A stretch of 64,000 nucleotides of DNA, from the IMG/VR virus record IMGVR_UViG_3300033463_000007, positions 159,865 through 223,864 of that record; one strand, 5' to 3'. The translations under genes were made by a program, and so were the position numbers. Every line of letters begins with the position of its first letter. Position 1 is the stretch's first letter. The notes below the pieces were generated by a model. It worked only from the letters and a program-made list of their open reading frames with translations. It did no database searches and was not told the DNA's origin. Source of the DNA: a virus (Duplodnaviria; Heunggongvirae; Uroviricota; Caudoviricetes). Below, in pieces: positions 1,241 through 58,450 of this stretch.

Positions 1241-2413
1241 ATGAGTATTGTTATTAATAATAGATCATATAATAATATAGATGCACTGAGAGTAAAATCT
1301 TTAGAAGATGGGGGATCTATTTCAGAAAAATGATTTTATTCTGCTGATAAGTCTCAGGCAAAAATAGGTGAACCATCTTCTTCTGAAATTAAAATAATTA
1401 CTCCGGATGTTAATTACGTATCATTGAGTCAAGTCACCATTCCGCAAATTAACTCTGTTAATTTAGACCCTTCTAAAATTCAGGCTGGCCAAACGATTAC
1501 AATTGGCTGAGCAGGGAATCCGGCTGCTTTATATTCTATCACTGGTACATATACTAATGATGCCACAGCAACAGAATATGATATTCGTAAGGGTAAAATT
1601 GCCTATGTAAAAGGGCAGCGATTAGTTGGTGTATTAACAAGTAGTGGCAGCGCCGGAGAAGAAACTTTAAAAATATCTTCTCTTGCACAATACCCGACAC
1701 GAAACGGTGAGGGTTATTATGACTATGCACAAATTCTGGATGATTCAGATGTAACTGGTTTAAAAGCAGAAAATATTGTTTGTGGAAAAACAATATTAAC
1801 TGATCTTTATGGCACTTTTGGTTCTTTAGCAATTCCATCACAAGCAGCAGATGAGGCTAGTATTCTAGAGGGTAAAGTAGCAAACGTCTATGTTTATAAT
1901 GAGGAAACAGGTGAAGAATCTCTGAGAACAGCTGTAGGTACTATTAGGACTTGGCCTGAAACAGTTTATAATCCTGATAAAAATAATGATAGAACAATTC
2001 CAGCCCAAAGATATATTGCTGAAGACTTAGTAATAAAAAAAGTTAATATAGGTCCCGTGGATTCACAAACACAACAGGTGACTGCTAATCAAATGTTAGC
2101 AGGTACTTCTTTGGCAGTCGGCTATGATGGCACGCCAGAGGGTCTTCTTAGTATAACTGGCACCATTCCCACAAATCCAAACTCTGGTTATACTATTACC
2201 CCGGGTACTTCATCAATAACACTTTCTGGCCCATCTTATATTAGTTCTGATATTACAATTATAGGTGATACCGATTTAGTTACTAATAATATACTGGAGG
2301 GTATTACTATTTTTGGTGTTACCGGAACTCTAAAATCAGAGGAGACTATTTATACAGAATTATGAACAAGAATATATGGTACTCCAGAGCCTGTGGCTGA
2401 AGCTATATTTTAA
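1241..2413 (+). CDS. Tail fibre-like repeat protein (TGTYT module family)
   Basis: RBS GGAAGG upstream of ATG; continuous frame through 4 TGA codons; repeated motif ITGTYTNDATATEYDIRKGKIAYVKGQRLVG shared with neighbouring genes. Confidence 0.5.
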
Positions 2414-2460
2414 ACTAAAAATAGTTTTCTAATAGATAATATTAAAAGGATATTAAAAAT

Positions 2461-5400
2461 ATGCCAACAAATAAAGAAAACTTTATAAATAAATTAAATA
2501 CCCTAGCTGATGCTGTTAAGACCAAGAGACCACTAGCTGAGGGTACGGATTATACTATTAATAATATTGTTGATGCAATTAGTAGTTGGGAGCTTAGACG
2601 AGCAGAAGAAAGCCCAACAGTTGATTTAGATTTATCTAATGGCAATCAGGTAATTATACCTACTGTAAGTGGTAATGTCTTATCTCAGGTCACTATTCGG
2701 CAACCGGTAGATCAGGAAGGCCATAATATATTTATTTCTGATAATATTAGGTCTGGAATAACTCTTGGAAATGTAACCGGAACTTATACAGCTGTAAATG
2801 AGAATGCTGTAACAGCTGCAGATATAAGATTTAATAAAAAAGCCTTTGTAAATGGTAGCGATGTAATAACTGGTTCCATGTCAGATTATAGTGGAACTAC
2901 TTTAATTGTTCCAACTTTTACAAATGGTACACCCTCACAGTCATCAACATCCCATATAGCTACACAAAATACTTTTGTAACAAGTAATATTAATTATGCA
3001 AATATTTGGTATTCAAATTTAGACCCCACAAAGATTCTTAATGGTGAAACAGTCAATATTGGCACTACTGATGATATTAGTACACCAAAAGTTACTGTTA
3101 CTGGTACTTACACTCCAGCAGTTGAAACTCTAATTCTTGACCAACCAAATGAACCCGGTGGTTTAAAACTTAATTATCAAAATACAGTTGGTTATGATTT
3201 ACCAGTACAAATTTTAACACACAGCCAAGGTAAATTAATAGAACAAGTTATATTATATCGTCCTGAAAATCTTATACCGGAAAATATTAAATATAATATA
3301 CCTATTGCAGGTACTGCTGGTACCTTTACAAGTAGTTCTACTGTTTCCAGTGGACAAATTGCGGCAACAGCTGATAAAATACGTTCTGGTTATTCCGCAT
3401 GGGTAAATGGTACTGAAATACAAGGTTCAATACCTAATAAAAGTGCAGAGGTTTATAATCCAACTATTGCATCGTCAAGTTCCGGCACAGCCACTTTAAA
3501 TCCTATAACAATTAGTTCTGGTCAATACTTAACTGGAAATCAAACGATTACAGCGACAGAGGTAAGAGGGTTAAATCCTGAATATATTGTTTCTGGGCAT
3601 AGCATTCAAATTGGCTATACACAAAATGATACTTTTAGACCAATTCATACAACACAAGGCTCTTACACAGGTATTGCTTCAGAATATATTGAGCCAACAG
3701 CTATAGAGTTTAATGAATTAATTTTCCGCACTACTACAAGTGGAATTACGATAGATTCAGATGTTGTAGTAAATCCAGAACCTGGGCATGCTTTTAGTCA
3801 GGTTAAAATTAAAAGGCCAACTGATATGTCTGCAGTTGCTGCAAAAATTGCTTATAATCAAACTATACACGGTATTTCTGGTACATTTTCTTATGAAGCA
3901 AATAATTCTATAACTGCCAGTTCAATTAGAAATGGCAAAGTTGGTTTTGTTAATGGTAATAAAATTATCGGTACAATGCTTGAGCGTGATGTCGGTAATA
4001 TTGGACTTTCTACTACAGATTATACAATAGCAGCAAATCAATATTTAGCAGGTGCTCAGACAATTTATGGTGCCAGAATAACAACCACGGATACTGGCGG
4101 TACAATAGCTGTTAATGATTTTAATGCTTTAGCCGGATTACTTGTTAAAGATGTAACTTTAGATATTGGTGATACTGGTGATACTGATAGACTTGCTCAT
4201 ATTGTTGGTACATATGATAACCAAAAACCGGAAGAAGTTGGAAATGTAACATTAAATTTCTGAGATTCAACACATTCAACTTATTATGATCAATTAGACA
4301 TTAATCCAAGCACACAAAATACAGTTTTTTCTCATGTTTTAATAAATAAACCAGCGACTTTAATTAAAGGAAATATTGCATCTGGAGTTTCTATCGCTGG
4401 TGTTACAGGTACTTATACAAATGATGCAAATGCAACATCAAGTGACATTTATCCTGGCAAAACTGCTTATGTACAGGGCACTAAAGTTTCTGGCAGCATG
4501 CAAACACGTGCCGCTGCAACAATTTATCCGAGTGCTTCAGACCAAACAATTGCTTCAGGTCGTTATTTAACTGGTACTCAAACAATAAAAGCAACGACTG
4601 TTAAAGCATATGACCCAGTATTACAAGAAACTGTTCCGTTAGATCCTGATTATATTATTAAGGGTGTTGTTGTAAAAGTTGGTGATGAAGTTAATAATGC
4701 TCGTGTTGCTAGTATAACTGGTACTTTCGATTATACTGAATTTATTGAAGGTCCAAGAGAAGTTGATTTATCATTAGCTTCTGGCAATCAAACTATAAAT
4801 CCAGAGGCCACTGGATATTCAATGAGCCAAATAATAATTAAGAAGCCCGTAAATTTATTAGCTAGTAATATTAAAAAAGATGTTGAAATTGCAGGTATTA
4901 CTGGAACATTTGAAGAAATAAAAGTATTAGAAATAGATGCAAATTACAATTCAGCATCAACTATTAATCTCACTACTGCACAAAAGAATGTTTTTACTTC
5001 TTTGGCTTTAGGTAGTACTATTAAATTAAAATTTACACAATCTAATAGTATTAAATATTTTACTAAAACCTATTCAAGCACCTCCGGTAGTGAAACATTT
5101 ATTGTTCTTACTGCACCAATTTCAAATGATTTTGAATGAAGTAATACTAAATATATTAGAACAAAAACTGAATTATGTTATATTGCTATTGCTAATAATA
5201 CAGCAGAATTACATTTGGTATATAAACAAGGCTCGTCTGCTGCTTTATTAGGTGAAATTAGGCCTAATACTGATCTTGTATTAGACCCAAGCACTGAAAC
5301 ACGTATTTATGATTATACAGATGCTACAATAGGTATTCCTACATCATTAACGGTTACAGGTCTTGCTTATACAGCTGTTCAACCAGAGCAGCTTTTACAG

Positions 5401-5703: not shown

Positions 5704-7116
5704 ATGGCAAAAAGTTGACTTGCTGGAGCTTCAAAAAAAATTACGATAACTGGCGGAAATGACAGTACAAATACAGATATATTAAAATATATGCAATTAA
5801 ATGCAGGCTGAATACAAACACTAGCTACACCAGTATTATCATTAACAGACTTAGCTATTACTTGGCCAAGTGTAACTAATAGGACCTCTTATACTGTTTA
5901 TGTTAATAATCAGTCCTATCAAGATCAAGTAATGATAAATTCTTTTGATATATCAGACTTTACACCCGGGACTTATTCAATTACAGTAAAAGCTATTGGA
6001 AGTACTTATTATCAAGACAGTTCATTAAGTACACCTTTTGTATATACATACTTAACTGCTCCAACAAATCTTGCAATAACAAATGATACAACATTATCTT
6101 TTACAGGTTCTTCTGGTGCAACTCATTATAGAGTTATTGTAGATTCTGAGACAATTCTTGGTATTTGTAATAGTTCTCCAGTTGACTTAGCTAGTTTTCA
6201 AGGCTGGGGTAATCTGACAGCAGGTGGTCATACAGTACAGTTACAAGCATTTGCTGATAATGCACGAGATAGTCAAGTTTCAACGGGTGTATTAGTTAGA
6301 ACTGGTGGTTATAATTTAACAGTTTCTACTTGACAAGAATCTGGTGAAGATAGTGGTCAATTTCAAGTTTTATATTCAGATAACTCCTCTGCTTGAGTTG
6401 GCTCTGGTACAACTAAGCATGTTTTACAAGTACTAGACTATAGATATACTTGAGATTATCAACAATCTTGAGAAATTAATGATGCCCAGCCATCATTACC
6501 TTATACACTTGCTGCAAATGCCTCTGCCTCAGTTTATTCTGAATCAAGTGGTGGCGGTGGGACCTGCTTTATTGCTGGTACACAAATAACTCTTGCTGAT
6601 GGTACCACAAAAGCTGCTGAGGATATTACTTATGATGATTCTTTGTTAGTTTGAAATTTCTATACTGGTACTTTTGATACAGCTAAACCCTTATGAATTA
6701 AGAAAGAAGAATTATCACCCTGTTATAATTTAGTCACTTTTGACAATGGTAAAACAATTGGTTTTGTTGGACCTGGACAAGAGATCGGTTATCATAGAAT
6801 TTATAATAATGAAGCTAAACAATTTACACATACTGGTGTAGCTGATACACCGGTAGGTACAACTTCTTTTGATGTTTTTGGACAGCAACCAAAAATAGTA
6901 AGTCAAGAAGTTAAATGAGAAAGAGTAAAATATTATAATATAATAACAGATAAATACTATAATTTATTTACAAATAATATTTTAACTTCTTGTATGCTAT
7001 CTAATGAATATGAAATATTAGATAATATGACTTATAATATAAATAATAGATATTTAACAGATAAACAAATTACTGATTATCTACAAAAAATTGAGGATTT
7101 AAGACGTCCAAATTAG
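5704..7116 (+). CDS. Structural protein with fibronectin-III-like repeats and C-terminal Hint (intein/hedgehog-like) domain
   Basis: ATG with RBS AGGAGAAATATAAAT upstream; many in-frame TGA; motif GGGGTCFIAGTQITLADGTTKAAEDITYDD is a classic Hint block A; ends TAG at 7114. Confidence 0.45.
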
Positions 7117-8399: not shown

Positions 8400-9200
8400 A
8401 TGGGAAAAAATATTTCTGTTAATGGCAGACAGTATAATTCAATAACAAAATTAAAAGTACAAAAAAATATATCTACAGAGAGCTATCATGTTTATGATTC
8501 TTATTACTCTGATGATTTATTTGAAAATACTAAATTAGTAGCGCCTTCTTTAGAGGTGCAGACAATTAACCCATCTGGTGATAATGTTGCTCTTAGTCAA
8601 GTAGTAGTACAAAGTATCGGAGCCGAAAATTTAATTCCAGAATATATTCAGGCGGGAAAAACAATTTCAATAAAAAGTAATGGTTTAGATGATAATCCTG
8701 ATTCATATCTTATGTCGGTTACAGGTACTTATACAAATGATGCAACAGCTACTGCTAATGATATCTTAGTAGGAAAAACTGCTTATATTAAAGGTGAAAA
8801 AGTTGTAGGTGCTAGATTAACTTCTGGTGGTATTATCCCAGAAGGTATTGCCTATATTACAACCACAGCACCAACTAATGTTTATAATTTTGCAGTTGCA
8901 AAAGTTGATAGCGAATTTCTTAGACCCGAAAATATTAAACAGGGTATAGAAATTTTAGGTAAAGTTGGTACTTATGGTGGTATCGATACAACAACTGCAA
9001 TAGATTTTTCAGCAGTTCATTTAGGCTATTTTTATAATGATGCTTTTTATACTGATAAAGCACATGTACATTTAATAGAGCCAGTTGATGGCAATACTTA
9101 TATGGATAAAGTATCTGCCAATGCTTATGATTATATAAATAATAGATATACTATTACCACGTCCTGGGTGGTAAATGTTGATCCAGCACAATTAGACTAA
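8400..9200 (+). CDS. Tail fibre-like protein (TGTYTNDATATANDILVGKTAYIKG module)
   Basis: Shares repeat modules with genes at 1241, 2461, 4376 region. Confidence 0.5.
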   Translation: MGKNISVNGRQYNSITKLKVQKNISTESYHVYDSYYSDDLFENTKLVAPSLEVQTINPSGDNVALSQVVVQSIGAENLIPEYIQAGKTISIKSNGLDDNPDSYLMSVTGTYTNDATATANDILVGKTAYIKGEKVVGARLTSGGIIPEGIAYITTTAPTNVYNFAVAKVDSEFLRPENIKQGIEILGKVGTYGGIDTTTAIDFSAVHLGYFYNDAFYTDKAHVHLIEPVDGNTYMDKVSANAYDYINNRYTITTSWVVNVDPAQLD

Positions 9201-9345
9201 ATGAATACAATTATTTTATGTTTAAAATAAAGTATTCAGTTTTATTGAATGCTTTATTTTATTCTTTTATTGTATAATATAATTGTATTTATAGGATCAA
9301 TAGAATCTGATAGATTCTTGATGATAATAAAGGAGTTTAATTTAA

Positions 9346-9951
9346 ATGGGTTTTTGTAAGACTTGTTATAAAGAAAAAATAAACCCTCAAGTTAAAGATG
9401 AAGATTTATCATATGAATTAGATGAAGCAATTTGTGAGTGTTGTGGAGAATTAAAGCATTTGGTAAAAATACCAGAAATTAAAGATCCAAACATAATGAC
9501 TGTTGCTGAATGTAATTTAGAAACACAAAAACATATAGAAAATGTTCGTAAATATATTAGATTTATTACAGATAAGTTGACACAGAGAGGTGTAGATCAT
9601 GATGCAAGTAAGATGGAATCACCGGAAGTTGAATTATTTGCACAATATACAAAAAAACTAGCCTCTTTAGTTTATGGTAGTGATGAATATAAAGCAAATT
9701 TAGAAGCTTTACAACCTGCACTAGAACATCATTATGCTACCAACAGACATCACCCAGAGCATTTTCCTAATGGAATAAATGATATGAATTTAATTGATAT
9801 TATTGAAATGTTTTGTGATTGGAAAGCTTCTTCTTTACGACAGAATGATGGAAATTTATTAAAAAGTATTGAGTTAAACACTGAGCGATTTAATATTGAT
9901 CCTCAGCTAAAACAGATTTTTATTAATACTGCTAATTTATTAGATGATTAA
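9346..9951 (+). CDS. Hypothetical protein, H-H...N-R-H-H...DM motif family (paralog of 34561..35124)
   Basis: LEHHYATNRHHPEHF...DMNLIDIIEMFCDWKASS resembles SWNHHYHHNKHHFQFWW...ESVCDMLGASKAY in the paralog; possible metal-dependent hydrolase. Confidence 0.35.
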   Translation: MGFCKTCYKEKINPQVKDEDLSYELDEAICECCGELKHLVKIPEIKDPNIMTVAECNLETQKHIENVRKYIRFITDKLTQRGVDHDASKMESPEVELFAQYTKKLASLVYGSDEYKANLEALQPALEHHYATNRHHPEHFPNGINDMNLIDIIEMFCDWKASSLRQNDGNLLKSIELNTERFNIDPQLKQIFINTANLLDD

Positions 9952-15861: not shown

Positions 15862-16443
15862 ATGGCAAAAGATCCATTAAAAACAGTTGGAGCAAGTAAT
15901 CTTTCTGACAAAGAACGAGCTAAAAATGATTATTATGCTACTGATCCTAAAACAACAAAGGCTTTTTTAGCTACATACCCATTAGATAAGACTAAGCTTA
16001 TCTGGGATCCAGGTAGTGGACATAATTTAATTATTAATGTTTTACAGGAGTATGGTTATAAAACATGGTCAACTGATTTATATAATTATGGTTATCAAGA
16101 TAATATTTTTGATTTTTTAACATATTCAAAAAAATTTGAAGGAATAATTTTTGGAAATCCCCCATATAAATTAGCTAATGAATTTGTAAAACACGCATTA
16201 GAAATAGTTACACCTGGAAGCCAAGTTATTTTTTTATTGCGTACGCTTTTTCTTGAGGGCCAGAAAAGATATAATGACATATTTAAACAAAAAAATTTAA
16301 AATTTGTTTTTGTATTTATAAATCGACAAGTATGTAGTACTAAAGATGATTTTACTGAAGGTAGTGCTATTTCATATAGTTTTTTTGTATTTGAAAAAGG
16401 TTTTATAGGAGAACCCACCATAAAATGGTTAGCTACAAATTAA
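15862..16443 (+). CDS. DNA N6-adenine (or N4-cytosine) methyltransferase
   Basis: IWDPGSGHN (motif I) and IIFGNPPY (motif IV NPPY). Confidence 0.6.
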   Translation: MAKDPLKTVGASNLSDKERAKNDYYATDPKTTKAFLATYPLDKTKLIWDPGSGHNLIINVLQEYGYKTWSTDLYNYGYQDNIFDFLTYSKKFEGIIFGNPPYKLANEFVKHALEIVTPGSQVIFLLRTLFLEGQKRYNDIFKQKNLKFVFVFINRQVCSTKDDFTEGSAISYSFFVFEKGFIGEPTIKWLATN

Positions 16444-16640
16444 AATATAGTGGTTATTGTATTATAAACTATACTACACAACAAATATTTTATGGTAAAA
16501 ACTTTGTAGAATTATCACAAACATCTGGTATTGCTGTTGCAGTAATTCAAAGAAATATAAAATTAAATAGAAAAGTAAAAAATATAGGTTATTATAAGTT
16601 GGATATTAATGGTATGCCAATAATAAAGGAGGTGATTTAA
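16425..16640 (+). CDS. Small hypothetical protein, possible HTH
   Basis: 71-aa ORF overlapping MTase 3' end; ELSQTSGIAVAVIQRNIKLNR helix-turn-helix-like. Confidence 0.25.
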   Translation: MVSYKLKYSGYCIINYTTQQIFYGKNFVELSQTSGIAVAVIQRNIKLNRKVKNIGYYKLDINGMPIIKEVI

Positions 16641-16641
16641 T

Positions 16642-17133
16642 ATGAAAGTGTTTATCATTAGTGATACACACTTTGGTTAAGGCCATACTAACATAATTAA
16701 ATATTGTAATAGGCCTTTTCAAACTACTCAAGAAATGGATGAAGTGATGATTAAAAATTGAAATGAAACAGTTTCTAATAAAGATACTATAATTCATCTT
16801 GGAGATGTTGGACTTAGTTCAAAAACATACATTTCTAGTATTGTTAAAAGATTACATGGTAATAAAATTCTTATTATGGGAAATCATGATAATTGGTCAG
16901 AGCAGGCCTATAGAGATATGGGATTTTCTACTGTAAGTAAATTTCCTATTTTATATAATAATTTTTATTTACTAAGTCATGAGCCCCTACAGTTAAGTGA
17001 AACGACTCCTTATTTTAATTGTTATGGACATGTTCATAATGATGAAAAATATCATGATATGGCTACAAGTAAATGTTTTTGTGTTGAAAGAACCGGCTAT
17101 AGGCCCGTACTATTATTTGAAAAAAATTAAGAG
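16642..17133 (+). pseudogene. Metallophosphoesterase (YfcE-like) interrupted by in-frame TAA at codon 13 (16678-16680), plus one TGA=Trp
   Basis: MKVFIISDTHFG-TAA-GHTNIIKYCNRPFQ...IHLGDVG...MGNHD...GHVH: all metal-binding motifs present and in one frame; the stop sits inside the conserved DTHFGH motif. Confidence 0.5.
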
Positions 17134-17141
17134 ATAAAATT

Positions 17142-18131
17142 ATGCAAAGAATGTTATCAGGAATAAAACCTACCGGAACTCCTACTTTAGGAACTTATTT
17201 AGGTGCAATTTTACCCTTTATAAGATACCAAAATGAATATGAGCTATTTATTTTTATTGCAGATTTACATGCCTTAACAACTTGTCAAAATGCTAAAGAA
17301 TTAAGAGATAATATTAATTTATTAGCTAAGATTTATCTAGCTGCTGGATTAGATTGTGGACAAAATAAAACTGTATTATTTAAGCAATCTGATGTATTAC
17401 AACATAGTCAGTTAAATTGGATTTTAAGTAATTATACACTAATGAGTGATCTTGAAATGATGACTCAATATAAACAAAAATGTCAGCAACTTGCAGCTAG
17501 ACAAGGAGTTAATGTATCTTTATTTACTTATCCTGTTTTAATGGCTGCAGATATTTTACTTTATAATACAGATTTAGTGCCTTGTGGTCAAGATCAAAAA
17601 CAACATATAGAATTAACACACGAGCTTGCCCGAAAATTTAACTCTATGTATGGTGAAACTTTTAAACTACCAAAGCCATATATAACCAAAACCGGCGCTA
17701 AAATAATGAGTTTATCTGACCCGACTAAAAAAATGAGTAAATCAGAGTCAGATAAAGGAACAATTTATTTAACTGATACTAAGGAAGTTATTTTTAATAA
17801 ATTTAAAAAAGCTGTCACTGATAGTGAAGGAAAAATTTATTATAATCCAGAAACTAAGCCTGGAATAAGCAATTTACTTACTATTTATGCTGCAATAAAA
17901 GATATTTCTATTCAAGAAGCTGAAAATATATTTAAAGATGAAAAAGATTACGGTAAATTTAAAAATGAAGTAGCTCAGATAGTTTGGCAATATTTAGATA
18001 CATTACAGTATAATATAAAACAAATTTCTGATAAACAAATATTTTTAACATTAGATGATGGTCAAAAACAGGCAGCTAAAATTGCATCAGAAACTCTATC
18101 CAAAGTATACAAAAAGGTGGGATTAAGATAA
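17142..18131 (+). CDS. trpS: Tryptophanyl-tRNA synthetase
   Basis: Class I aaRS: N-terminal MLSGIKPTGTPTLGTYLGAI, KMSKS motif KKMSKSESDKG; 329 aa; no TGA codons. Confidence 0.85.
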   Translation: MQRMLSGIKPTGTPTLGTYLGAILPFIRYQNEYELFIFIADLHALTTCQNAKELRDNINLLAKIYLAAGLDCGQNKTVLFKQSDVLQHSQLNWILSNYTLMSDLEMMTQYKQKCQQLAARQGVNVSLFTYPVLMAADILLYNTDLVPCGQDQKQHIELTHELARKFNSMYGETFKLPKPYITKTGAKIMSLSDPTKKMSKSESDKGTIYLTDTKEVIFNKFKKAVTDSEGKIYYNPETKPGISNLLTIYAAIKDISIQEAENIFKDEKDYGKFKNEVAQIVWQYLDTLQYNIKQISDKQIFLTLDDGQKQAAKIASETLSKVYKKVGLR

Positions 18132-18134
18132 AAT

Positions 18135-19196
18135 ATGTTTGATAGGCTTGAAAGTATATTAAATAAATATGATGAGCTTTCAATGAAATTAAGTTCTTCA
18201 GAAATTATTTCAAGTAATTTATATCAGCAATATAGTAAAGAGTTAGCAGATATTCAAGAAATTGTTGATACTTATTCTGCTTATAAAGACGCACAGGATT
18301 ATTTAGAACTACTTAAAGAAGATGAAGCTAAAAATACTGATTTGGAATTAAAAGTACTATATAATAGTGAAATTAAAGAAACTCAAAGTAAATTATCAGA
18401 GCTAGAAAATAATTTAAAATTATTATTATTGCCAGCTAACAAGGATGATTCCAAAAATATTATTATGGAAATTCGTGCAGGAGTTGGCGGAGATGAAGCA
18501 GCTATTTTTGCAGCAGATCTTTTTAATATGTATTTAAAATATACACAAAAACAAGGTTGGAATGTTTCAGTTAGTAGCTATACTGAAGGTGTTCTAGGTG
18601 GTTTTAAGGAAATTATCTTAAGTATTTCTGGTAAAAACGTTTATCAAAAATTAAAATATGAAGGTGGAGTACATCGGGTACAACGAGTACCAGAAACTGA
18701 GGCTAGAGGCAGAATTCATACATCAACAGCAACAGTTGCAGTACTTCCAGAAAGAACAGAAACAGAAGTTATAATTGATCCAAAAGATATTACTATTGGT
18801 TTATTTCATTCCGGTGGGGCTGGTGGTCAAAATGTAAACAAAGTTGAAACAGGTGTACGTATAACACATATTCCTACCGGAATGGTAGTTGCTTGTCAAG
18901 AAGAGCGGTCACAGCTACAAAACAAAGAACGTGCTTTTGAAATATTGCGCGCAAAGTTATGGGATTATTATAATACTCAAAATATTAATTCTGAAATAAA
19001 CCAACGAAATAGTATGATTGGTACTGGTGATAGATCAGAAAAAATTCGAACTTATAATTTTCCGCAGCATCGTATAACCGACCATAGAATTAATTATACT
19101 ACTTATAATATAGAAGAAGTATTACAAGGTAATTTAGATGATTTAATTGAACATTTACAAATTGCAGAAAATGCAAAATTGTTAATTAATCAATAA
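18135..19196 (+). CDS. prfA: Peptide chain release factor 1
   Basis: GGQ motif (SGGAGGQNVNKVETGVRITHIPTG), PxT-type tripeptide region RVPETEARGRIHTSTATVAVLPE, C-terminal HRINYT; 353 aa; no TGA codons. Confidence 0.85.
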   Translation: MFDRLESILNKYDELSMKLSSSEIISSNLYQQYSKELADIQEIVDTYSAYKDAQDYLELLKEDEAKNTDLELKVLYNSEIKETQSKLSELENNLKLLLLPANKDDSKNIIMEIRAGVGGDEAAIFAADLFNMYLKYTQKQGWNVSVSSYTEGVLGGFKEIILSISGKNVYQKLKYEGGVHRVQRVPETEARGRIHTSTATVAVLPERTETEVIIDPKDITIGLFHSGGAGGQNVNKVETGVRITHIPTGMVVACQEERSQLQNKERAFEILRAKLWDYYNTQNINSEINQRNSMIGTGDRSEKIRTYNFPQHRITDHRINYTTYNIEEVLQGNLDDLIEHLQIAENAKLLINQ

Positions 19197-19269: not shown

Positions 19270-20127
19270 ATGTTAAAATTTAAAGTACCAAAGCAACAAG
19301 ATTTAGATTTAGATCAGTTGATTTTTGATAGAATTACTTTTGGCAATACACAACCATCACCAAAAGATGATCGAGATTATATTGCGCAAGCTAAAGATTG
19401 ATCTAAAATAAAATTTCCAAAAGAATATAGAGCACCAAAAACAGAAGTTTTAAATCAAGAAAATTATGGGTCTTGCGTAGCTCATTCTTGCGCCACCGCT
19501 TTAGCCCAAGGAGAACAACTTATTTCAAATACCCACAATAATTATTCTCGCGGTTATATTTATGGTAATAGAAAATCAACTGACTTGCAAACTGAGGGTA
19601 TGATTGTTAGGCAGGCATTAAAGCAACTACATAATTGTGGAGATGTTCTATATGATGATTTTCCATATAATAAAACTTATCCTATGGTAAAAGCTTTAAT
19701 TGATATTGATAGAGAATATTTAGCAAATAAAGCAAAGCAGTATACTATTTTTGATTTTTATAGGTGTTGTGATGAAAATCAGTTAAAAGATGCTATTATA
19801 TCCTCCGGTGCAGTTATAATTGTAGTTCCTGTTTATAGTGATTTTGCCCGTGATTTACATAAAACTCAATCATGGGAACTCCGAGGCTATCATGCAATGG
19901 CTTTAGTTGGTTGAACTGCTGATAAATGAATTGTACAGAATTCTTGAGGCTTAGAATGGGGTTATGATGGTTGTTTATTAATGGATATGGATTATCCCAT
20001 AATTGAAAGCTGAGGCATAACCGTTAATAAGGAACTTAAAAAGTCACTTTGATATAGAATAAAAACAATTTTTAAACAATTTTGAAATTGAATTAAATAT
20101 ATCTGAAATAAAATATTTAAAAAATAA
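19270..20127 (+). CDS. Papain-like (C1) cysteine peptidase, paralog of 135..1187
   Basis: NYGSCVAHSCATALAQ Cys motif, GYHAMALVG-W-TADK-W-IVQNS-W-GLE-W-GYDG with W=TGA; ORF continuous only under TGA=Trp. Confidence 0.6.
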
Positions 20128-21529: not shown

Positions 21530-23023
21530 ATGAAGAAGACAGATAATTATCAACAAAATATAGATGAAAATAGTGATAAAAATTTTGAATCAATTGGGTA
21601 TGATGAACCAATTGATTTATTATATAGTGAATTAGTTGCCTCTAAGGAAACACCAGAACAAGTAATTATTTATACTGATTTTACACGTAGAACAGAATTA
21701 CCTACTGAAAATGATAAATATGTTAAATCATATATTCGTGAAGCTGATGGCGGATGAAATTTAGCTATTAAAGGTAAGCCTACTCATGAATTATGCACTG
21801 TATTAAGTAATTGTGTAGGCTGAGCCGCTGGTAGATATAATGAAATTTATGATGAAATTAAAAATATCACAGGTCATCATTATCCTTATTTAGTTTGTAA
21901 TGCAGAGGATTTTCCAGTTCGAGCCAAAAAATCATATCCTGATATTATAATGGATCAAACTCCTGAACCTGGCGCAATAATGGTCTGAGAAGGTATTGGT
22001 AGTCTCGCAGGACATGTTGCTATTGTAGAAGAAGTGATAGATAATAATACTGTATATACTTCTGAATCAGGTTATGGTAGTACTATTCCAATGAGATACC
22101 AAAAAAGAGTTAATGATAATGGTTGTTGAGGCATGAACACAACAAATTATAAATTTACTTGCTTTATGCACAATCCAGCAGTTGAAAAAACTATTATTAA
22201 TATAGTGCAACCAGTTGAAAGAGATGTACTAATAGATCAATTATATATTGATACACCTAATTATTCATATATTAGAATGGATCATAGTACAGCTTCTAAA
22301 GCCATAGGGCAGTTTAAACAGGGATATTTTAATTATACCGATAGTTTTATTGGCGATGATTATGTTTGATATAAGCTTGCTGAAAATCAATGAGTTGCTA
22401 AAACAGGCCATATCCAAGTATATCCTAAAGTAAATCCAAGTATAGAAAAAATTGAATTGAATGAAGACTATACTAATACATATTATGCAGGTGATTTTTT
22501 ACAGTTTAAAATGATAGGTTTAAATTGCAAAGAATATTGAAATACCGGGGAAGTAAAAGATGTTGTTTATAATAATTATAAAATAATACCAGCAAATGGC
22601 ACAGCTTTAACTGTTAATGATACAAAAATTATTATTAATTTTGAAAATAATTTAACTCTTGAATTACCTCTTGAGATAAAAGTTAAGGTTGAGCCAAAAG
22701 TTGTAAAAATACAGCTTTCTGGCACGTATAAAACTGAATATTGAGAAGGCGAAAAACTTGATTTAACTGGTCTTATTGTTGAAGCAGTTTATGATAATGG
22801 TGAAATTACTTCATCTATACCTTATATTGCTTCACCACAGGCAAATAGTTTGTTACCATTTATGGGGACTCAAAACGTTGTAATTGCTGCTTATCTTGAC
22901 AACAAAGGATTTTCAACTTCTTTTAAAATAAATGTAAAACATAAACAAACTGCAGCCGAAAAATTCAGTCAAATGATACAAGCACTAGCTAACTTTATTA
23001 GAAGTTTATTTAATAAAAAGTAA
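21530..23023 (+). CDS. CHAP-domain peptidoglycan hydrolase with C-terminal Ig-like repeats (lysin / tail-associated lysin)
   Basis: CTVLSNCVG-W-AAGRY (Cys) and GAIMV-W-EGIGSLAGHVAIVEEV (His) CHAP motifs; many TGA=W; C-terminal KVVKIQLSGTYKTEY-W-EGEKLDLTGLIVEAVYDNG Big-like domain. Confidence 0.6.
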
Positions 23024-28430: not shown

Positions 28431-29456
28431 ATGTCAGTAAAAGATGCGTTAATAGCTACTCATTTATTTTTAGAAAACGACTACTTTTTTCGGTATATTG
28501 ATTTAATTGAAAAAAATAAAAATAGAGTAAAACAAAAGTATAAAACTCAAAAACATCATATTATTCCAGCTATTGCTTTTAAATTATATAATTGAGAAGG
28601 TATTGATGCACCAGAAAATTTAGTTAATTTATTATATAAAGATCATATTTTAGCTCATTATTATTTAGCTTTAGCTACTAAAACTTCTGATTTTCAATAT
28701 AAAATGATTGCTGCTATAAATTTTATTTTAGGTAAAGCTAAACAAAGTAAAATAGATATACAAGAACTACAAACTTTTATCTTAAATTTGGAAAATTATC
28801 AAAATTTATATGAAAATTGAATTAAAGAAAGAAGTTTATTACTTCACTCCAAATTATTAGGTCATGAAACTTCTGAAGAAACAAGAAAAAAAATAAGTGA
28901 AGCAAATAAAAATAAAATTTATATTTATAAAGAAAATATAGTACGTGCTGTTCATAAAGAAGACTTACAATTATTTTTAGATAATGGTTGAACTTTAGGA
29001 AATCCTAACTGTCAAAAAAGAAAACAGACCACAGGACAGACTATTATACATAAAGAAGAAATTGAAAAATATATTTTTAAAGAAGACTTATCTTTATATT
29101 TAGCTAATGGTTGAATATTAGGACGAAGTGACCAACATAAAAAAGCAACACAGCAAGGAACACAAGCTTATTATGATAAATTAACAAAAGAAGAAAAAAT
29201 TAATAAATGTGCAACTAGACAAAATCAACACTGAGAAATGTCAGAAGAAACAAAGAAAAAAATAAGTAATGCAAAGTCTGGAAAAAAGCAATCTGAAGAA
29301 CAAAAACTTTTAAATAGTCAAAATAAAAAAGATACAATTTGAATGACTAATGGTCAACAAGATATTATGATTAAAAAAGATTTAGAACTTTATTATTTAG
29401 ACCAAGGTTTTATTCGAGGAAGAACTAATTATAAAAAAAATAAAAAAGGAGAATAA
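28431..29456 (+). CDS. Free-standing HNH homing endonuclease with NUMOD3-like repeats (341 aa, 9 in-frame TGA=Trp)
   Basis: KHHIIPAIAF HNH core; repeated SEETRKKISEANK / SEETKKKISNAKSG (NUMOD3) and LQLFLDNG-W-TLG / LSLYLANG-W-ILGR repeats; preceded by TTTGCTAAATTAATTAG motif; invisible in the standard-code ORF track. Confidence 0.55.
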
Positions 29457-35124: not shown

Positions 35125-35144
35125 TACGGAAAAAGGATTACGCT

Positions 35145-35201
35145 ATGAAAACATTATTACTTATGCGAGGTGCCCCTGTTTTATATGCCTATAAAAGATA
35201 G
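35145..35201 (+). CDS. 18-codon ORF duplicating the N-terminus of the downstream Pnkp-like gene (MKTLLLMRGAP...)
   Basis: MKTLLLMRGAP vs MRTLLLLRGAP at 35323; own RBS AAAAGGA. Confidence 0.3.
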   Translation: MKTLLLMRGAPVLYAYKR

Positions 35202-35322
35202 AGCTAATAAAATTTTAAAATTACGTCGTATTAAAAAATAGTTTAAAAACTTTTAAAAATAAAATAATTATTATAATATATATATAATCTATAGATTATA
35301 TAATGGAAGGTAGGTGATTATT

Positions 35323-37539
35323 ATGCGCACTCTCTTACTTTTAAGAGGTGCTCCTTAGCCAGGAGCAGGTAAGTCAACTTGGATACAGCAACACAATTTA
35401 CATGATTATACTATTTGTCCTGATGAGTTACGAGTTCTTTGTGCCTCAAAAGAGCTTATGGCTAACGGTGAGTATACAATTACTCAAGAAAGAAATAATG
35501 AAAATAAAGTATGGTCTTTATTATTTGATATTCTTGAATATAGAATGTCAAGAGGTGAATTTACTGTTATAGATGCTACTTGTTCTAAAACAAGAGATAT
35601 TCAACAGTATAAGGATCTTGCAGATCATTATAGATATAGAGTATATATTGTAGATTTTACAAAAGTGCCTCTTGAAACTTGTTTAGCACAAAATAAGCAG
35701 CGTCATCCCGATAAGTGGGTTCCGGATGATGCAATTAAAAATATTTATGCTAGATTTGCTACCCAGCCTATTCCTAAAGGTGTGTCTGTAATTCAGCCTG
35801 ATGAATTTGATACAATTTTAGAAACTCCTTTTGATGTATCTAACTATAGAAAATTAGTATTCATTGGAGATATTCATGGTTGTTATGATACTTTAATGCA
35901 GTATCCTGATTTCAAAGATGGATTAAAAGATGATACAGAATATATTTTTATTGGAGACTATATTGATAGGGGCAATCAAAATTATGAAGTCTTAAAGTTT
36001 CTTGGCGAAATAAAAGACCTTCCTAATGTTTGCTTACTTGTAGGAAATCATGAAAATCATATTCAAGATTTTGGAGACGGTATTACTGCAAAATCTAGGG
36101 AGTTTGAAGAAAAAACTAAAGTAGAGCTTCAGACAAAGGGATATACAGAAAAAGAAGCTAGAATGTTTTATAGAAAACTTAGACAGTTTTCTCACATCAC
36201 TTGGAATAGTTTTGAAATTCTAGCTTGTCACGGGGGAATTCCTAATCTTACAAAAAATCTACTCTATGTACCTTCTGAAAAACTTATTAAAGGATCAGGG
36301 TCTTATAGTGATTATTTAACGGTTACTGCTTCTTGGATGGCCCAGACAAATAGTAATCAATATTTAATTCATGGTCATAGAAATACTGAAGGTAGTGAAA
36401 CACAGATTGCTGATCGAGTTTTTAATCTTGAAGGCAAAGTAGAATTTGGTGGGCAGCTAAGAATTGTTGAATTAGATAAAGATGGTTTTCATACTATTGA
36501 GCTTGATGATTGTCAGCCAATTACTGAAGATCTTAATACCGAAACTCGACCGGTAGAGACAGTTGAAGACGCCATTTCTTATCTTAGAAATAATAAGTTT
36601 ATTCAAGAAAAGAAATTAAATGAACAAATATCTTCATTTAATTTTACCCGTGATGCTTTTTATAAAGGAAATTGGAATAGACAAACAATTCTAGCTCGTG
36701 GATTATTTATTGATACTGAAGCTAAAAAGATTATGGCTAGATCATACGAAAAATTCTTTAAAATTGGTGAAGTAAATTCTACTGAATTAGCTGTTTTAAA
36801 AAGTAAATTACAGTTTCCTGTAAGTGCATATGTTAAAGAAAACGGTTTTTTAGCTATTGTATCTTATGATTATAGAAATGATGATTTATTCATTGCATCT
36901 AAATCGACTAATCAAGGAGACTATGTTGAATATATCAAGACTGCTATCGAACCGTATAAAATAAATTTATTTAATTATTTAAAATATGCTAATGAAAATG
37001 GCAATAATATCTCTATGGTATTTGAATGTGAAGATCCTGAGCATGACCCACACATTATTAAATATAATAAGCTTAGAGTAGTTTTATTAGATATAATTTC
37101 TAACCAACTTGATTTTTTTGCTTGGCCTTATGAGCTAACTAAAAAAGTTGCAGAAGAAGTAATTTATTGTCCTGTAAAAGAAAAAGCATATGAATTTAAA
37201 GATTGGGACTCTTTTAGGGAATTTTATTCTGAAATCCAAGAAGATGATTATCAGTATAATGGAAAATATGTAGAAGGATTTGTATTTGTAGATTCTAACG
37301 GATTTCAAACAAAGTGTAAGACTCCTTATTATAATCAATGGAAAAAACTTAGAGGTGTTGCAGACCAGACTCTAAGACAGGGTTATATAGTAAAAACAGG
37401 AATGTTAATTAATTCTTTAGAAAATCTTTTTTATGGTTTTTGTAAAGATTTATATAAAACTTATAGAGATCCTGAAACAAAAACTTATCCATTTAAAACT
37501 GATATTATATCTTTAAGAGAAAGGTTTTTAGTTAATTAA
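35323..37539 (+). CDS. Polynucleotide kinase-phosphatase-ligase (Pnkp-like RNA repair enzyme) with in-frame TAG at codon 12 (35356-35358)
   Basis: P-loop LLRGAP-TAG-PGAGKSTW; metallophosphoesterase GDIHG...GDYIDRG...GNHE; C-terminal nucleotidyltransferase/ligase VKENGFLAIVSY (KxNG motif I); ORF 35458..37539 is the same frame. Confidence 0.5.
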
Positions 37540-49775: not shown

Positions 49776-50181
49776 GGGGGTGTAAAGGTTTCGACAGGGT
49801 TAAGAAAGTGATAGTATACGCAGGAGTTATTCACCTTACGAATCGGTAATTTAAAATAAACGACAATACAATTGTTACTTTTAGTCCTTTCTTAATTAAT
49901 GCACTCTCTTCTATGAGGGCTGCTGCTTAAGATATTATAGGCGCCAAAACAATACGCTGGTGATCAAGCAAGTATTTGAGGTCAAAGAACGGGTCACATA
50001 AAGTTGTCCAACTTTAAAATGGACTGGTGGAGACGGATAAAACCGGCGCAACTCATTTAATATATTGAATTTGCTTATTTTACATTATATTAAATTATTT
50101 TATTAAATAAGCTAGTGCGTAAGTATTATACTATTTTAGTATTAATTTTGGACAGGGGTTCGATTCCCCTCACTTCCACCA
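49776..50181 (+). ncRNA. ssrA: tmRNA (ssrA) with long tag ending -AAA
   Basis: 5' GGGGGTGTAAAGGTTTCGACAGGG (cf. E. coli GGGGCUGAUUCUGGAUUCGACGGG), 3' GGACAGGGGTTCGATTCCCCTCACTTCCACCA; acceptor with G3:U70; tag ORF ...GAC AAT ACA ATT GTT ACT TTT AGT CCT TTC TTA ATT AAT GCA CTC TCT TCT ATG AGG GCT GCT GCT TAA = (N)DNTIVTFSPFLINALSSMRAAA. Confidence 0.75.
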
Positions 50182-50185
50182 ATGT

Positions 50186-50261
50186 CTGGGTGTAATTCAG
50201 TTGGTAGAATGCGTGATTTGGGATCACGATGCCGGATGTTCAAGTCATCTCACTCAGACCA
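50186..50261 (+). tRNA. tRNA-Pro(UGG)
   Basis: CTGGGTG-TA-ATTC-AGTTGGTA-GAAT-G-CGTGA-TTTGGGA-TCACG-ATGCC-GGATG-TTCAAGT-CATCT-CACTCAG-A-CCA. Confidence 0.7.
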
Positions 50262-50403: not shown

Positions 50404-51191
50404 ATGAATTTATTTAAATGCTACCTATCCGACAGTAAGTGATATAAAGAAGCCGTAAGAAATGGTCAACCCATTGGAATTCTTTGACATGACACTGCTG
50501 CTGGAAACCCAAACTTAAAACGTTATGTCCAACCAAATGAATCAGATCCAGATTATGATAAGCTTATGGCAATGCTTGGAAAGAATCAATATAATAATTC
50601 TTGACAGCATTCTACCATGAATAAAGGTGTAAATGCTTTTATTGGTAAACTAGAAGATGGCTCGGTTGCAACAGCTCAATTAGGTGAATGAGATATTCAT
50701 GCTTGAGGTTGTGGGGGCGGAAATAAAGGCTCCTGTAATGGTTATACTATTGTAAATGGTAAAACAACTTGAGTTGAACCTTTTTGGATTCAATTTGAAA
50801 CTTGCGACGACTTTTATACTGATAAAAGCTACTTTGAAGCGGTCTATAAAGAAGCTTGTGAGTTTACAGCTTATATTTGTAAGCAATTTAATATTGATCC
50901 AAATGGTACCGTAGAGTTTAATGGTGTTCAGGTACCTACTATTTTATGTCATGCAGATAGCTATAAGCTTGGACTTGGAAATGATCATGGTGACGTTTTA
51001 GTATGATTTAAAAAGTTTGGTAAAACTATGGATGATGTAAGAAGAGATGTGGCTGCTATCTTACAAGAAGAAAAAGAAAAAGATGATAAAGATAAAGACG
51101 ATGAAGAAATAGATGAAAATACATTTCTCAAATGCTTTAAAATAGTCATCAAATTTATTAAACAGCTCTGGTATAGCACAAATAAAAAGTA
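50404..51191 (+). CDS. N-acetylmuramoyl-L-alanine amidase (Amidase_2/PGRP-like endolysin); 9 in-frame TGA=Trp
   Basis: GIL-W-HDTAAGNP, HA-W-GCGGGNKGSCNGY, PTILCHADS zinc-ligand pattern; completely fragmented in the standard-code ORF track. Confidence 0.65.
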
Positions 51192-51198
51192 AAACTTT

Positions 51199-57223: not shown

Positions 57224-58450
57224 ATGGCAGAAGTAAAACAATTGTCATTTAAAGATGTAGTTAAAAAAATTAATAAAGCATGCAAGGATTGAGATATTTT
57301 GGGTTCTGGTAATTTTTCTCAGAACTTAAAAAAATTGTCTCTAGGTACACTTGGTTTTGATTGTCCTTTTAAAGGTGGTTTGCCATATGGGCAAATTGTT
57401 ACATTTAGTGGTGTTGAGCACTCAGGAAAATCTACTGCAGCGGTACTTGCTATGGCTCAATACCAAAAAGAAAACCCAGATAAAATTTGTATCTATGTTG
57501 ATGCCGAAAATACACTTTTAACACAGTCTGATTATTTTCAATCAATTTCATCAATTAGTTATGATGAAAATCATTTTGTTAGATATGATTGTACAGGTAG
57601 ATCTGCAGAAGAAATTTTTCAGGATTTAATTATGCTTCAAGAAACTGAAGAAGTTGGTATGATTGTGATTGATTCTTCCAGAGCACTTATTTCACAAGCA
57701 GATCTTGATAATGAATTTGTAAAAGATAATGGACAACGAGCAAGTGTCGCAAAACCTATTGGTAAATTTATTAAACAAATGATGATGTATTTACCAAAAA
57801 GAAATAATATTCTGTTAATTATTAATCAGGTTACAGTTGAAAAAAGTTTATATGCCACTACTTATACTGAACCAGGTGGATATGCTTTAAAATATTTTCC
57901 ATCTCTAAAGGTTAGATTTGGTACCCGTACTTATACAGCTGGCGATAAAACTGATATTACACAGTCAAAGGTTGATGAAAAAGTTGATGGTATTAGGTTG
58001 CATTTTGCGATTGTTAAAAGCCGTTTGGGTGCAATTGGAAAAGACGGTGGTTTTATTACTATCCGTTATAATAGCGGAGTAGATACTGTTTTTGATCTAC
58101 TAGAAGTTGCATTAAAGGCTGGATTTATCAAAACACCCACTAATAAGTCTTATGTTCTAACTAATCTGTTAACCGGTGAAACTTATAGAGATGGCGAAAA
58201 TGAGCTTGTCTTTGAAGCAAGTCGTGGTGCTGATGCTTATGCTGCATTAGTAAATTATTTATGTAGTAATCCTGTTTTTGTTAATGAATATTCAAAAATG
58301 ATTAATGAATATTTATCACAAAACAAAGTTAAAGTTGATTTAATTGATGAACAGATTATTAATGATTTAATGAAACAAGAGAGTGAAATTATGGGTGACG
58401 TTGAAATGACTGATACTCAGGCGCTTGCTGCAGATGGAGTAGATGAATAA
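57224..58450 (+). CDS. RecA/UvsX-like recombinase
   Basis: GGLPYGQIVTFSGVEHSGKST Walker A, IVIDSSRAL Walker B region; one N-terminal TGA (CKD-W-DIL). Confidence 0.65.

Follow-up and report, generated by a model that had tools for sequence, protein, structure and literature searches.

What is an in-frame stop codon doing inside the P-loop of an RNA repair gene, and can such a gene still be translated? The question is raised by pnkp, a gene in a 64,000-nt stretch of DNA (hereafter the window; positions 159,865 to 223,864 of IMG/VR record IMGVR_UViG_3300033463_000007) from an uncultured Caudoviricetes phage of ~232 kb with a G+C content of ~29%. As an earlier note on this DNA had observed, the gene begins with MRTLLLLRGAP, TAG and PGAGKSTW, so that the stop interrupts a kinase P-loop; its ATG lies at 35323, one nucleotide away from the position that the note implied. 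When the TAG (35356..35358) and the CCA codon behind it (35359..35361) are removed, the resulting hop-corrected protein matches the Pfam domains AAA_33 (1.6e-18), Metallophos (1.5e-14) and RNA_lig_T4_1 (1.9e-35), and the predicted product is a Pnkp-type RNA repair enzyme with an N-terminal P-loop kinase, a central metallophosphoesterase and a C-terminal ligase. Past the CCA the main frame reads GGA GCA GGT AAG... and is open to 37539, with positions 35362..37539 encoding the rest of the kinase (GAGKSTW...), the metallophosphoesterase and the T4-type RNA ligase. Comparison with other alleles points to a mobile cassette at this site, and we give roughly an even chance to the reading that it is an endonuclease-associated protective insert, tolerated via a ribosomal hop over the stop from CCU to CCA. 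The features of the pnkp and phosphoesterase loci described below lie on the plus strand of the window.

The stop codon belongs to a ~184-nt insertion between Pro11 and Gly12

The closest proteins to the window product, P0001 (89% identity) and P0002 (83%; encoded on a 221-kb contig), both start with MKTLLLMRGAPGAGKSTWIQQHNLHDY, in which the peptide MKTLLLMRGAP is joined directly to the residues that follow TAG-CCA in the window. In the window this peptide is encoded upstream of the main gene, where a ribosome-binding site (RBS) and 11 codons at 35129..35177 reproduce the start of P0001 and P0002 exactly at the protein level. These codons open an 18-codon open reading frame (ORF) that runs from an ATG at 35145 to a TAG at 35199-35201, encodes MKTLLLMRGAPVLYAYKR and is preceded by GGAAAAAGGA; the separate 18-codon ORF with its own RBS described in the earlier note is thus present, and ~120 nt of AT-rich DNA lie between it and the main gene. 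The window and the cassette-less contig that encodes P0001 (L006) are 94.6% identical in DNA sequence up to position 35176 and 92.4% identical from 35368 on, and the ~184 nt between these flanks have no counterpart in L006. A clean insertion of ~184 nt between Pro11 and Gly12 of the P-loop is well supported by this comparison (35178..35361, with a boundary ambiguous by 1 nt), and the insert is likewise absent from L007, L001, L002 and L003. Because P0001, P0002 and L006 match the window on both sides of the ~184 nt that they lack, the upstream 11 codons are, on sequence comparison, the gene's own original N-terminus, now severed from the gene, rather than a duplicate, and the resident frame simply enters the inserted DNA and ends at the stop at 35199-35201. 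Comparison with relatives, which the earlier note had recommended, therefore bore out its suggestion of an insertion scar and did not uphold that of a duplication, since the second N-terminus was imported on the cassette.

The cassette comprises an AT-rich leader, a promoter-like region, a strong RBS (GGAAGGTAGGTGA, 35305..35317; a GAAAGG(T/C)(A/C)AGGTGA-type sequence in the cassette alleles), an 11-codon mini-ORF with its stop (ATG CGC ACT CTC TTA CTT TTA AGA GGT GCT CCT TAG, encoding MRTLLLLRGAP; 35323..35358) and an extra Pro codon. All cassette-less homologues read RGAPG[AC]GK[ST], and therefore the window carries six extra nucleotides rather than three; the stop and the codon behind it are additional with respect to ~170 full-length homologues, such that the TAG is indeed extra, as had been noted, but as one of two codons and not as a single additional position. 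The second N-terminus stems from another allele. Over 45 nt it does not differ by a single nucleotide from L005, a Logan contig from another sample whose protein is 85% identical, which reads ...TATAGATTATATAA(C)G(A)AAGGTAGGTG(G)TTATT ATGCGCACTCTCTTACTTTTAAGAGGTGCTCCT TAG CCAGGAG and whose gene diverges immediately past this point; the right ~100 nt of the window cassette are near-identical to L005.

A perfect 22-nt palindrome, TATATAATCTATAGATTATATA, lies in the promoter-like region of the cassette, with TATAAT on both strands; it occupies 35281..35302, not 35282-35303 as first reported. It occurs once in the window, where no chance matches are expected, and so does not form part of a repeated family there, and only its right half, TATAGATTATATAA, is common to L005, so that it is not a defining part of the cassette. 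A scan for promoter and terminator consensus sequences near the site was uninformative in this AT-rich DNA.

Other kinds of insertion were considered and rejected. The two N-termini differ at most synonymous sites and are therefore diverged alleles, which excludes a target-site duplication left by a transposon. A group I or group II intron does not fit the splice-site rules (group I) or the size of the insert, and Rfam returned nothing at E<=1 except a chance microRNA match. An intein was rejected as well, because the insert is 184 nt of AT-rich DNA, out of frame, with a same-sense copy of exon 1.

The cassette recurs on diverged alleles and always retains its stop

The same cassette was found on 10 other diverged contigs (L005, L045, L090, L093 and L170-L175), giving 11 alleles with the window. 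Three of these (L045, L090 and L093) came from a degenerate metagenome scan for GAP-stop-P-G.GK, and six (L170 to L175) from contigs encoding N-terminally truncated Pnkp calls; the sources were independent samples from Logan, ENA, JGI and NCBI, and no cassette-bearing pnkp was found in the IMG/VR and GTDB genomes searched. About 20 of 196 aligned Pnkp proteins (>690 aa) start at an internal Met like the cassette alleles.

The Pro11 codon (35353..35355 in the window) is CCT in 11/11 alleles and is followed in every one by a stop, TAG in five and TAA in six, and never by a sense codon. The 3-4 nt behind the stop (CCA, CTA, CTT, TCCA or GTCA) have changed several times. The window, L005 and L093 carry CCT TAG CCA GGA, and L045, L090, L171 and L174 carry CCT TAA CCA GGA; L170 has CCT TAA CTA GGC and L175 CCT TAA CTT GGG. 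The insert is 6 nt long in these nine alleles and 7 nt long in the remaining two, L172 (CCT TAG T CCA GGA) and L173 (CCT TAG GTCA GGC). The triplet just before the GGN codon, which is extra with respect to all cassette-less homologues, is therefore CCA, synonymous with CCT, in 8/11 alleles and CTA, CTT or TCA in the other three. A further protein from NCBI, P0306, starts MLLRPGAGKST and was called from a GTG inside AGAGGTGCT; its N-terminus implies, at the protein level, a third 7-nt form, CCT TAG G CCA GGA.

The 33-nt mini-ORF is nearly invariant over the 11 alleles, and the following 29 codons differ, with a synonymous divergence (pS) of 0.4-0.9. A cassette-less allele with a similar N-terminus (L176, MRTLLITRGAP) uses other synonymous codons at 8/10 positions. 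Two codons of the mini-ORF, CGC and CTC, are uncommon in this DNA (5% of the Arg codons and 2% of the Leu codons in 20 sampled ORFs), and these cassette-specific rare codons form part of a conserved predicted hairpin, stem-loop 1 (SL1; GCAC-U-CUCUU(A) [loop] (U)AAGAG-GUGC, 35327..35351), which is predicted in all cassette alleles. Its stem positions are invariant and its loop is variable, with an apical pair that is A-U, G-C or A.C, and its 3' arm holds a Shine-Dalgarno (SD)-like GAGGUG 2 nt 5' of the CCU. A second small predicted hairpin, SL2 (UGCUCCU [UAGCC] AGGAGCA, 35349..35367), places the stop in its loop and has a UCCU/AGGA core in most alleles. No covariation was detected among the RNAalifold pairs, nearly all of which are invariant.

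The coding sequence behind the cassette appears to be under constraint. The codons from the stop to the first Met are intact in all alleles and show purifying selection (for example, eight synonymous differences and one non-synonymous difference between L170 and L172), and in the kinase domain 20 cassette-type proteins are no more diverged than 173 others.

The cassette is associated with homing-endonuclease-like genes

In four alleles (L170, L090, L093 and L174) a gene of 283-312 aa immediately precedes the cassette. Its product in L170 matches Pfam DUF7487 (1e-12) and PHROG families annotated 'homing endonuclease' (1.4e-9 and 7e-5); that of L174 has no Pfam or PHROG match on its own and is linked to the L170 family by tblastn homology, and a PD...E-x-K nuclease motif can be recognized by eye in the upstream proteins. 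L045 and L171 carry degraded remnants of this endonuclease-like gene. L045, L090, L171 and L174 have ~30 nt in common past the stop before they diverge, as expected of co-conversion tracts. Together, these observations make a mobile insertion well supported at the sequence level. In the window, the left junction reads ...GGT GCC CCT | GTTTTATATGCC..., the inserted side of which equals the first bases past the stop of the upstream gene in L005; the window appears to have received only the part of the donor from the intergenic region rightwards.

Related genes occur at other places in these contigs. In L006, a DUF7487-like endonuclease homologue (8822-9682; 34-44% amino-acid identity), shown as fragments by the gene caller, lies ~600 nt downstream of the cassette-less pnkp, and might be an enzyme that targets cassette-less pnkp in trans. 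Small CopG/ribbon-helix-helix-like genes (51-53 aa) are found in L007 (481-639, 5754-5909 and 12721-12882) and L005 (1225-1380), of which one immediately follows a GIY-YIG gene and another immediately precedes pnkp; these small genes may belong to endonuclease cassettes.

A phosphoesterase gene carries an insert of the same design

The earlier note had drawn a parallel to a phosphoesterase gene at 16642, which holds. This gene (16642..17130) reads GGT TAA GGC at 16675-16683, within the motif SDTHFG|H, and its homologues, which are 160 aa long and read DTHFGH, correspond to the window gene minus two codons. In L168, a 95%-identical relative, the site reads GGC TAA GGC, and in L169, a distant IMG/VR contig, a phosphoesterase has GGT TAA GGT at the same position. 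An intact 323-aa GIY-YIG/SegE-like endonuclease gene ends 2 nt before the phosphoesterase ATG in L168; in the window, the last ~210 nt of such a gene, near-identical to the 3' end of the L168 gene, remain directly upstream of the phosphoesterase (16425..16640). The window has lost the 5' two-thirds of this endonuclease gene and has in their place an ORF at 15862-16443, which has an NPPY motif and looks adenine methyltransferase-like by eye, with no significant Pfam match.

In-frame TGA codons between two identical codons, AAT TGA AAT (16759, in the phosphoesterase) and GAT TGA GAT (57290), were considered as further candidate hops and rejected as ordinary TGA codons read as Trp; at 16759, L168 has TGG. 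A generic scan of the window and the loci for further codon-stop-codon sites found only the pnkp and phosphoesterase cases above noise.

Several neighbouring genes were noted on the phosphoesterase contigs. In L169, the stop-containing phosphoesterase (1426-2003) lies ~220 nt downstream of a small AAA_33-type kinase gene (753-1202) with an intact GAPGSGKST loop, and positions 36-320 are a possible remnant of an endonuclease DNA-binding region. In L103, an HNH-like ORF with an HHIIPR motif (~2060-3030) lies downstream of a stop-free phosphoesterase and is split by an in-frame TAG (AAT TAG AAA) from an N-terminal piece of 42 codons that has a good RBS; here, too, an endonuclease gene may have been interrupted.

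A ribosomal hop would restore both conserved motifs

We propose that a homing-endonuclease-associated mobile cassette was copied into the P-loop-coding DNA of pnkp. Its entry into the window gene would have been one-sided, at a break between Pro11 and Gly12, with the right end joined by homology and the left end by illegitimate joining, which would have stranded the original N-terminus as the 18-codon upstream ORF. The 6-7 extra nucleotides probably disrupt the endonuclease target within a sequence that is intolerant of amino-acid change. With peptidyl-tRNA-Pro on the CCU and the stop in the ribosomal A site, the tRNA would probably re-pair to the CCA past the stop and translation would resume at GGA, such that a hop over 6-7 nt yields the canonical RGAPGAGKST and the gene probably stays functional. 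The GGT TAA GGC of the phosphoesterase, beside its GIY-YIG remnant, would follow the same design.

The arrangement of codons is consistent with this proposal. The codons that flank the stop can be read by one tRNA in 8/11 pnkp alleles (CCU/CCA) and in 3/3 phosphoesterases (GGU/GGC, GGC/GGC and GGU/GGU), and the deviant landing triplets CUA, CUU and UCA differ by a change of C to U, after which G.U pairs can still form with a UGG anticodon. In 14/14 sequences (11 pnkp and 3 phosphoesterase) the stop lies directly 3' of the take-off codon, and it is kept in all of them although the bases right behind it drift. The 7-nt inserts of L172 (TAG-T-CCA) and L173 (TAG-GTCA) are informative, because there the frame is restored only by re-pairing just before GGN, which rules out simple readthrough in these alleles; a single event, re-pairing from CCU to the triplet that directly precedes GGN, would give the canonical protein whether the insert has 6 or 7 nt. 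Homologues without the insert encode a single residue at the sites in question (RGAP|GAGK and DTHFG|H in all of them), as a stop-hop would produce. Termination by release factors is reportedly slowest at Pro and Gly residues. The intact and selected codons up to the first Met, the undiminished constraint on the kinase domain, the predicted SL1 and SL2 and the tRNA-Pro(UGG) encoded in the window likewise fit a hop.

The genome recodes TGA and encodes a tRNA-Pro(UGG)

The closest tblastn matches to isolated phages are at most 40% identical and belong to Bacillus and Staphylococcus phages, and no near-identical isolated phage was found; sample names suggest that the related contigs originate from animal-gut or rumen metagenomes. 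TGA serves as a Trp codon in a subset of genes, and many others, pnkp included, have no in-frame TGA. Besides the phosphoesterase with its TGA at 16759, TGA-containing genes lie at 5704-7116, 21530-23023, 28431-29456, 50404-51192, 19270-20127 and 57224-58450, some of them large ORFs with 6-9 in-frame TGAs that become visible only when TGA is taken as sense; in the last, a RecA-like gene, the TGA is at codon 23 (57290). TAA is the main terminator (64/70 ORFs with TGA taken as sense). A tryptophanyl-tRNA synthetase (TrpRS)-like class I tRNA synthetase with a KMSKS motif (17142-18131) and an RF1-type release factor with PCRF and RF-1 domains and PET and GGQ motifs (18135-19196) are adjacent to each other, and this pair, the machinery expected for TGA-to-Trp recoding, sits right behind the stop-containing phosphoesterase.

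The window also encodes a transfer-messenger RNA (tmRNA; 49776-50181, tag DNTIVTFSPFLINALSSMRAAA) immediately before a tRNA-Pro(UGG) (50186-50261) with a normal 7-nt anticodon loop and G37, which reads CCU as well as CCA. A hop may be assisted by this tRNA, the RF1-type factor and the tmRNA, and it is a speculation that the tmRNA and the tRNA-Pro bear on ribosomes paused at Pro-stop. No suppressor tRNA was found in the window.

Weighing the hop against other explanations

The hop is inferred from sequence alone, and several observations weigh against it. In three pnkp alleles the landing codon does not match perfectly; the mini-ORF of L045 (9087 region, minus strand) begins with ATA rather than ATG, the remainder being like L171 and L174; and in the window no endonuclease gene adjoins pnkp. 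The hairpins are supported by conservation rather than covariation, with a compensatory change at one apical pair only, and SL2 is short, weak in L175 and L093, devoid of covariation and partly forced by the Ala-Pro-Gly-Ala codons. Since the cassette seems recently mobile, judging by the ~30-nt co-converted tracts, purifying selection downstream may be older than the insertion, and the mini-ORF may be invariant for historical reasons and not because of an RNA signal. A nascent chain of only 11 residues means that a nascent-peptide signal of the gene 60 type cannot operate; unstimulated stop-hops in Escherichia coli are inefficient, at about 1%, and the RF1-type release factor of the phage should favour termination at UAG and UAA. 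With these caveats, a selfish knock-out of two accessory genes stays a serious rival, although in our judgement less likely than the hop. Here the homing cassette would inactivate the kinase domain, translation would end after 11 codons, at most a P-loop-less protein from Met45 (35458) that retains the phosphatase and ligase domains would be made, and the matched Pro and Gly codons would be by-products of the insert's origin. The mobility and recency of the cassette, the identical mini-ORFs on very different alleles, the accessory nature of pnkp and the phosphoesterase, the N-truncated gene calls (P0003, P0257-P0267 and others), the lost ATG of L045 and the three imperfect landing codons all agree with such inactivation, for which 7-nt variants would be equally neutral. 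A dead gene, however, has no reason to keep its stop, yet 11/11 pnkp and 3/3 phosphoesterase sequences do so while the neighbouring bases drift; no allele has suffered secondary damage in the codons from the stop to the first Met, constraint on the kinase domain is not relaxed, and neither an SD sequence nor an evolved start precedes Met45 or its equivalents. The phosphoesterase ORF is intact in three lineages, one of them only distantly related, and its catalytic DxH lies upstream of the stop, so that truncation would destroy the enzyme. That a codon, a stop and a synonymous codon should stand in this order in two unrelated genes is also unlikely by chance (~1 in 15-20 each, as a rough estimate).

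The remaining explanations fare worse. Amber read-through or suppression, an idea raised in the earlier note, would have a tRNA decode the TAG or TAA and lengthen the P-loop by two residues (GAP-X-P-GAGKST); the genome does reassign TGA to Trp and the window does encode an RF1-type factor and a TrpRS, but the stop aligns with no sense codon of any homologue and is part of the extra 6-7 nt, whereas the TGA at 16759 aligns with TGG/Trp. In addition, six of the 11 alleles use TAA, the main terminator of the genome, the two 7-nt alleles would be out of frame, the [AG]xxxxGK[ST] (Walker A) spacing would be broken by two inserted residues, and the window has no suppressor tRNA, which makes this very unlikely. 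We regard a prfB-like +1 frameshift at CCU-UAG, promoted by the SD-like GAGGUG 2 nt upstream, as similarly improbable. The SD-like element, the short spacer, the shift-prone Pro codon and the stop resemble the RF2 frameshift site, and L172 and L173 (and P0306, as its N-terminus implies) continue directly in the +1 frame; in the 9/11 alleles with 6-nt inserts the shift would be unproductive and leave the window form non-functional, its product elsewhere would keep two extra P-loop residues (SP or RS), AGAGGTG is also present in the cassette-less L003, and the phosphoesterase site has no SD-like element. The proposal that the 18-codon ORF is a regulatory leader peptide, with the palindrome as operator or attenuator of pnkp, draws on the ORF's own RBS and on the AT-rich palindrome between it and the gene. 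It loses nearly all credibility when the ORF is recognized as the resident N-terminus, identical in protein to P0001 and P0002, running into inserted DNA; moreover, the ORF is missing from all 10 other cassette loci and the palindrome as such is not conserved. Finally, the metagenomic source of the assembly might suggest an artefact such as a two-strain chimera. The chance of this is negligible: an ENA contig that ends inside the window, and is therefore a separate record, has the identical sequence; the TAG-CCA cassette occurs in the independent samples from all four sources, which argues against an assembly or sequencing error; and on visual inspection the two N-termini have no exact word in common that would be long enough to mislead a k=141 assembler.

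Comparison with known bypassing and homing systems

To our knowledge, programmed translational bypassing has been described essentially in one phage element, T4 gene 60 with its homologues, and in a single lineage of yeast mitochondria. The gene 60 bypass cassette has reportedly been described together with the MobA homing endonuclease. In T4 gene 60, a 50-nt insert in the invariant Toprim motif blocks nicking by MobA, and ribosomes bypass it by leaving GGA-UAG and landing on a matched GGA (bioRxiv 10.1101/2022.08.31.505936); the insert travels with MobA, GIY-YIG or VSR endonucleases that are often lost later (Manning & Atkins, bioRxiv 10.1101/2022.08.31.505936). The pnkp and phosphoesterase inserts resemble it in placing extra, untranslatable nucleotides within a strongly conserved motif close to the 5' end of a coding sequence, with a stop immediately 3' of a Gly- or Pro-type take-off codon and a matched landing codon for the same tRNA. 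Further likenesses are the homing endonuclease gene directly upstream, often degraded or lost, and the mobility of a cassette that brings its own N-terminal coding segment to diverged alleles; a small hairpin around the take-off codon may be another. The two differ in scale, the gap being 3-4 nt here (in an insert of 6-7 nt) against 50 nt, with no mini-SD in the gap, and only 11 (pnkp) or 12 (phosphoesterase) residues precede the take-off site, which leaves no room for a nascent-peptide signal (KKYK..., ~14-30 residues back). They also differ in their targets, here the P-loop of pnkp and the DxH motif of a phosphoesterase, and in their endonucleases, here DUF7487-like and GIY-YIG; there is no sequence homology between the gene 60 insert and the elements described here, where the hop is postulated from sequence.

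The stop-hops built in E. coli (Weiss et al. 1987; O'Connor et al. 1989) were engineered constructs that worked with low efficiency. According to a 2016 review (PMC5009743), hopping over an in-frame stop had been demonstrated in synthetic constructs alone and no natural case was known; our literature searches turned up no later report of one. The local design is the same, with matched codons around a stop and 9 nt specifying one amino acid (CCU UAG CCA; GGU UAA GGC). Here, in contrast, it has been retained in evolution, frame-changing 7-nt variants included, and is tied to a conserved upstream RNA sequence. The 'byp' elements of Magnusiomyces capitatus mitochondria are likewise short mobile inserts in coding sequences that are bypassed and that tolerate imperfect landing codons; they are longer (27-55 nt) and mitochondrial, their A-site codon is a sense codon that goes unused, and they show no endonuclease association. 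The free-standing Seg and Mob endonuclease cassettes of T-even phages share with our loci an endonuclease beside a conserved target gene, co-conversion of flanks and decay of the endonuclease after fixation; in those phages immunity normally comes from introns, inteins or substitutions that are synonymous or tolerated, and an in-frame stop does not serve this purpose. The genome itself is of the same kind as the gut phages of animals and humans in which TGA is recoded to Trp or TAG to Gln, since it reads TGA as sense in some of its genes and encodes both a TrpRS and a release factor of the RF1 type, but such reassignment leaves the TAG and TAA inserts unexplained, as these are extra codons and not reassigned ones.

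Whichever mechanism applies, gene callers now annotate these genes as N-terminally truncated, and ~20 of the protein clusters retrieved here start at an internal Met. We suggest tentatively, and with somewhat less than even confidence, that the inserts are the first natural 'stop-hops': portable bypass elements of 6-7 nt, independent of a long nascent-peptide signal, with which the homing endonucleases of jumbo phages that recode TGA would repeatedly, in two or more unrelated genes, conceal their target sites within catalytic motifs that do not vary. If hopped, they would allow take-off and landing to be studied in a natural system of minimal size, 9-10 nt and an upstream hairpin, in which no nascent-peptide signal takes part, and 'insert plus bypass' would be a general means by which homing endonucleases protect themselves inside unchangeable sequences. 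The pnkp insert would then repeat, on a very small scale, the arrangement of the T4 gene 60/MobA cassette.

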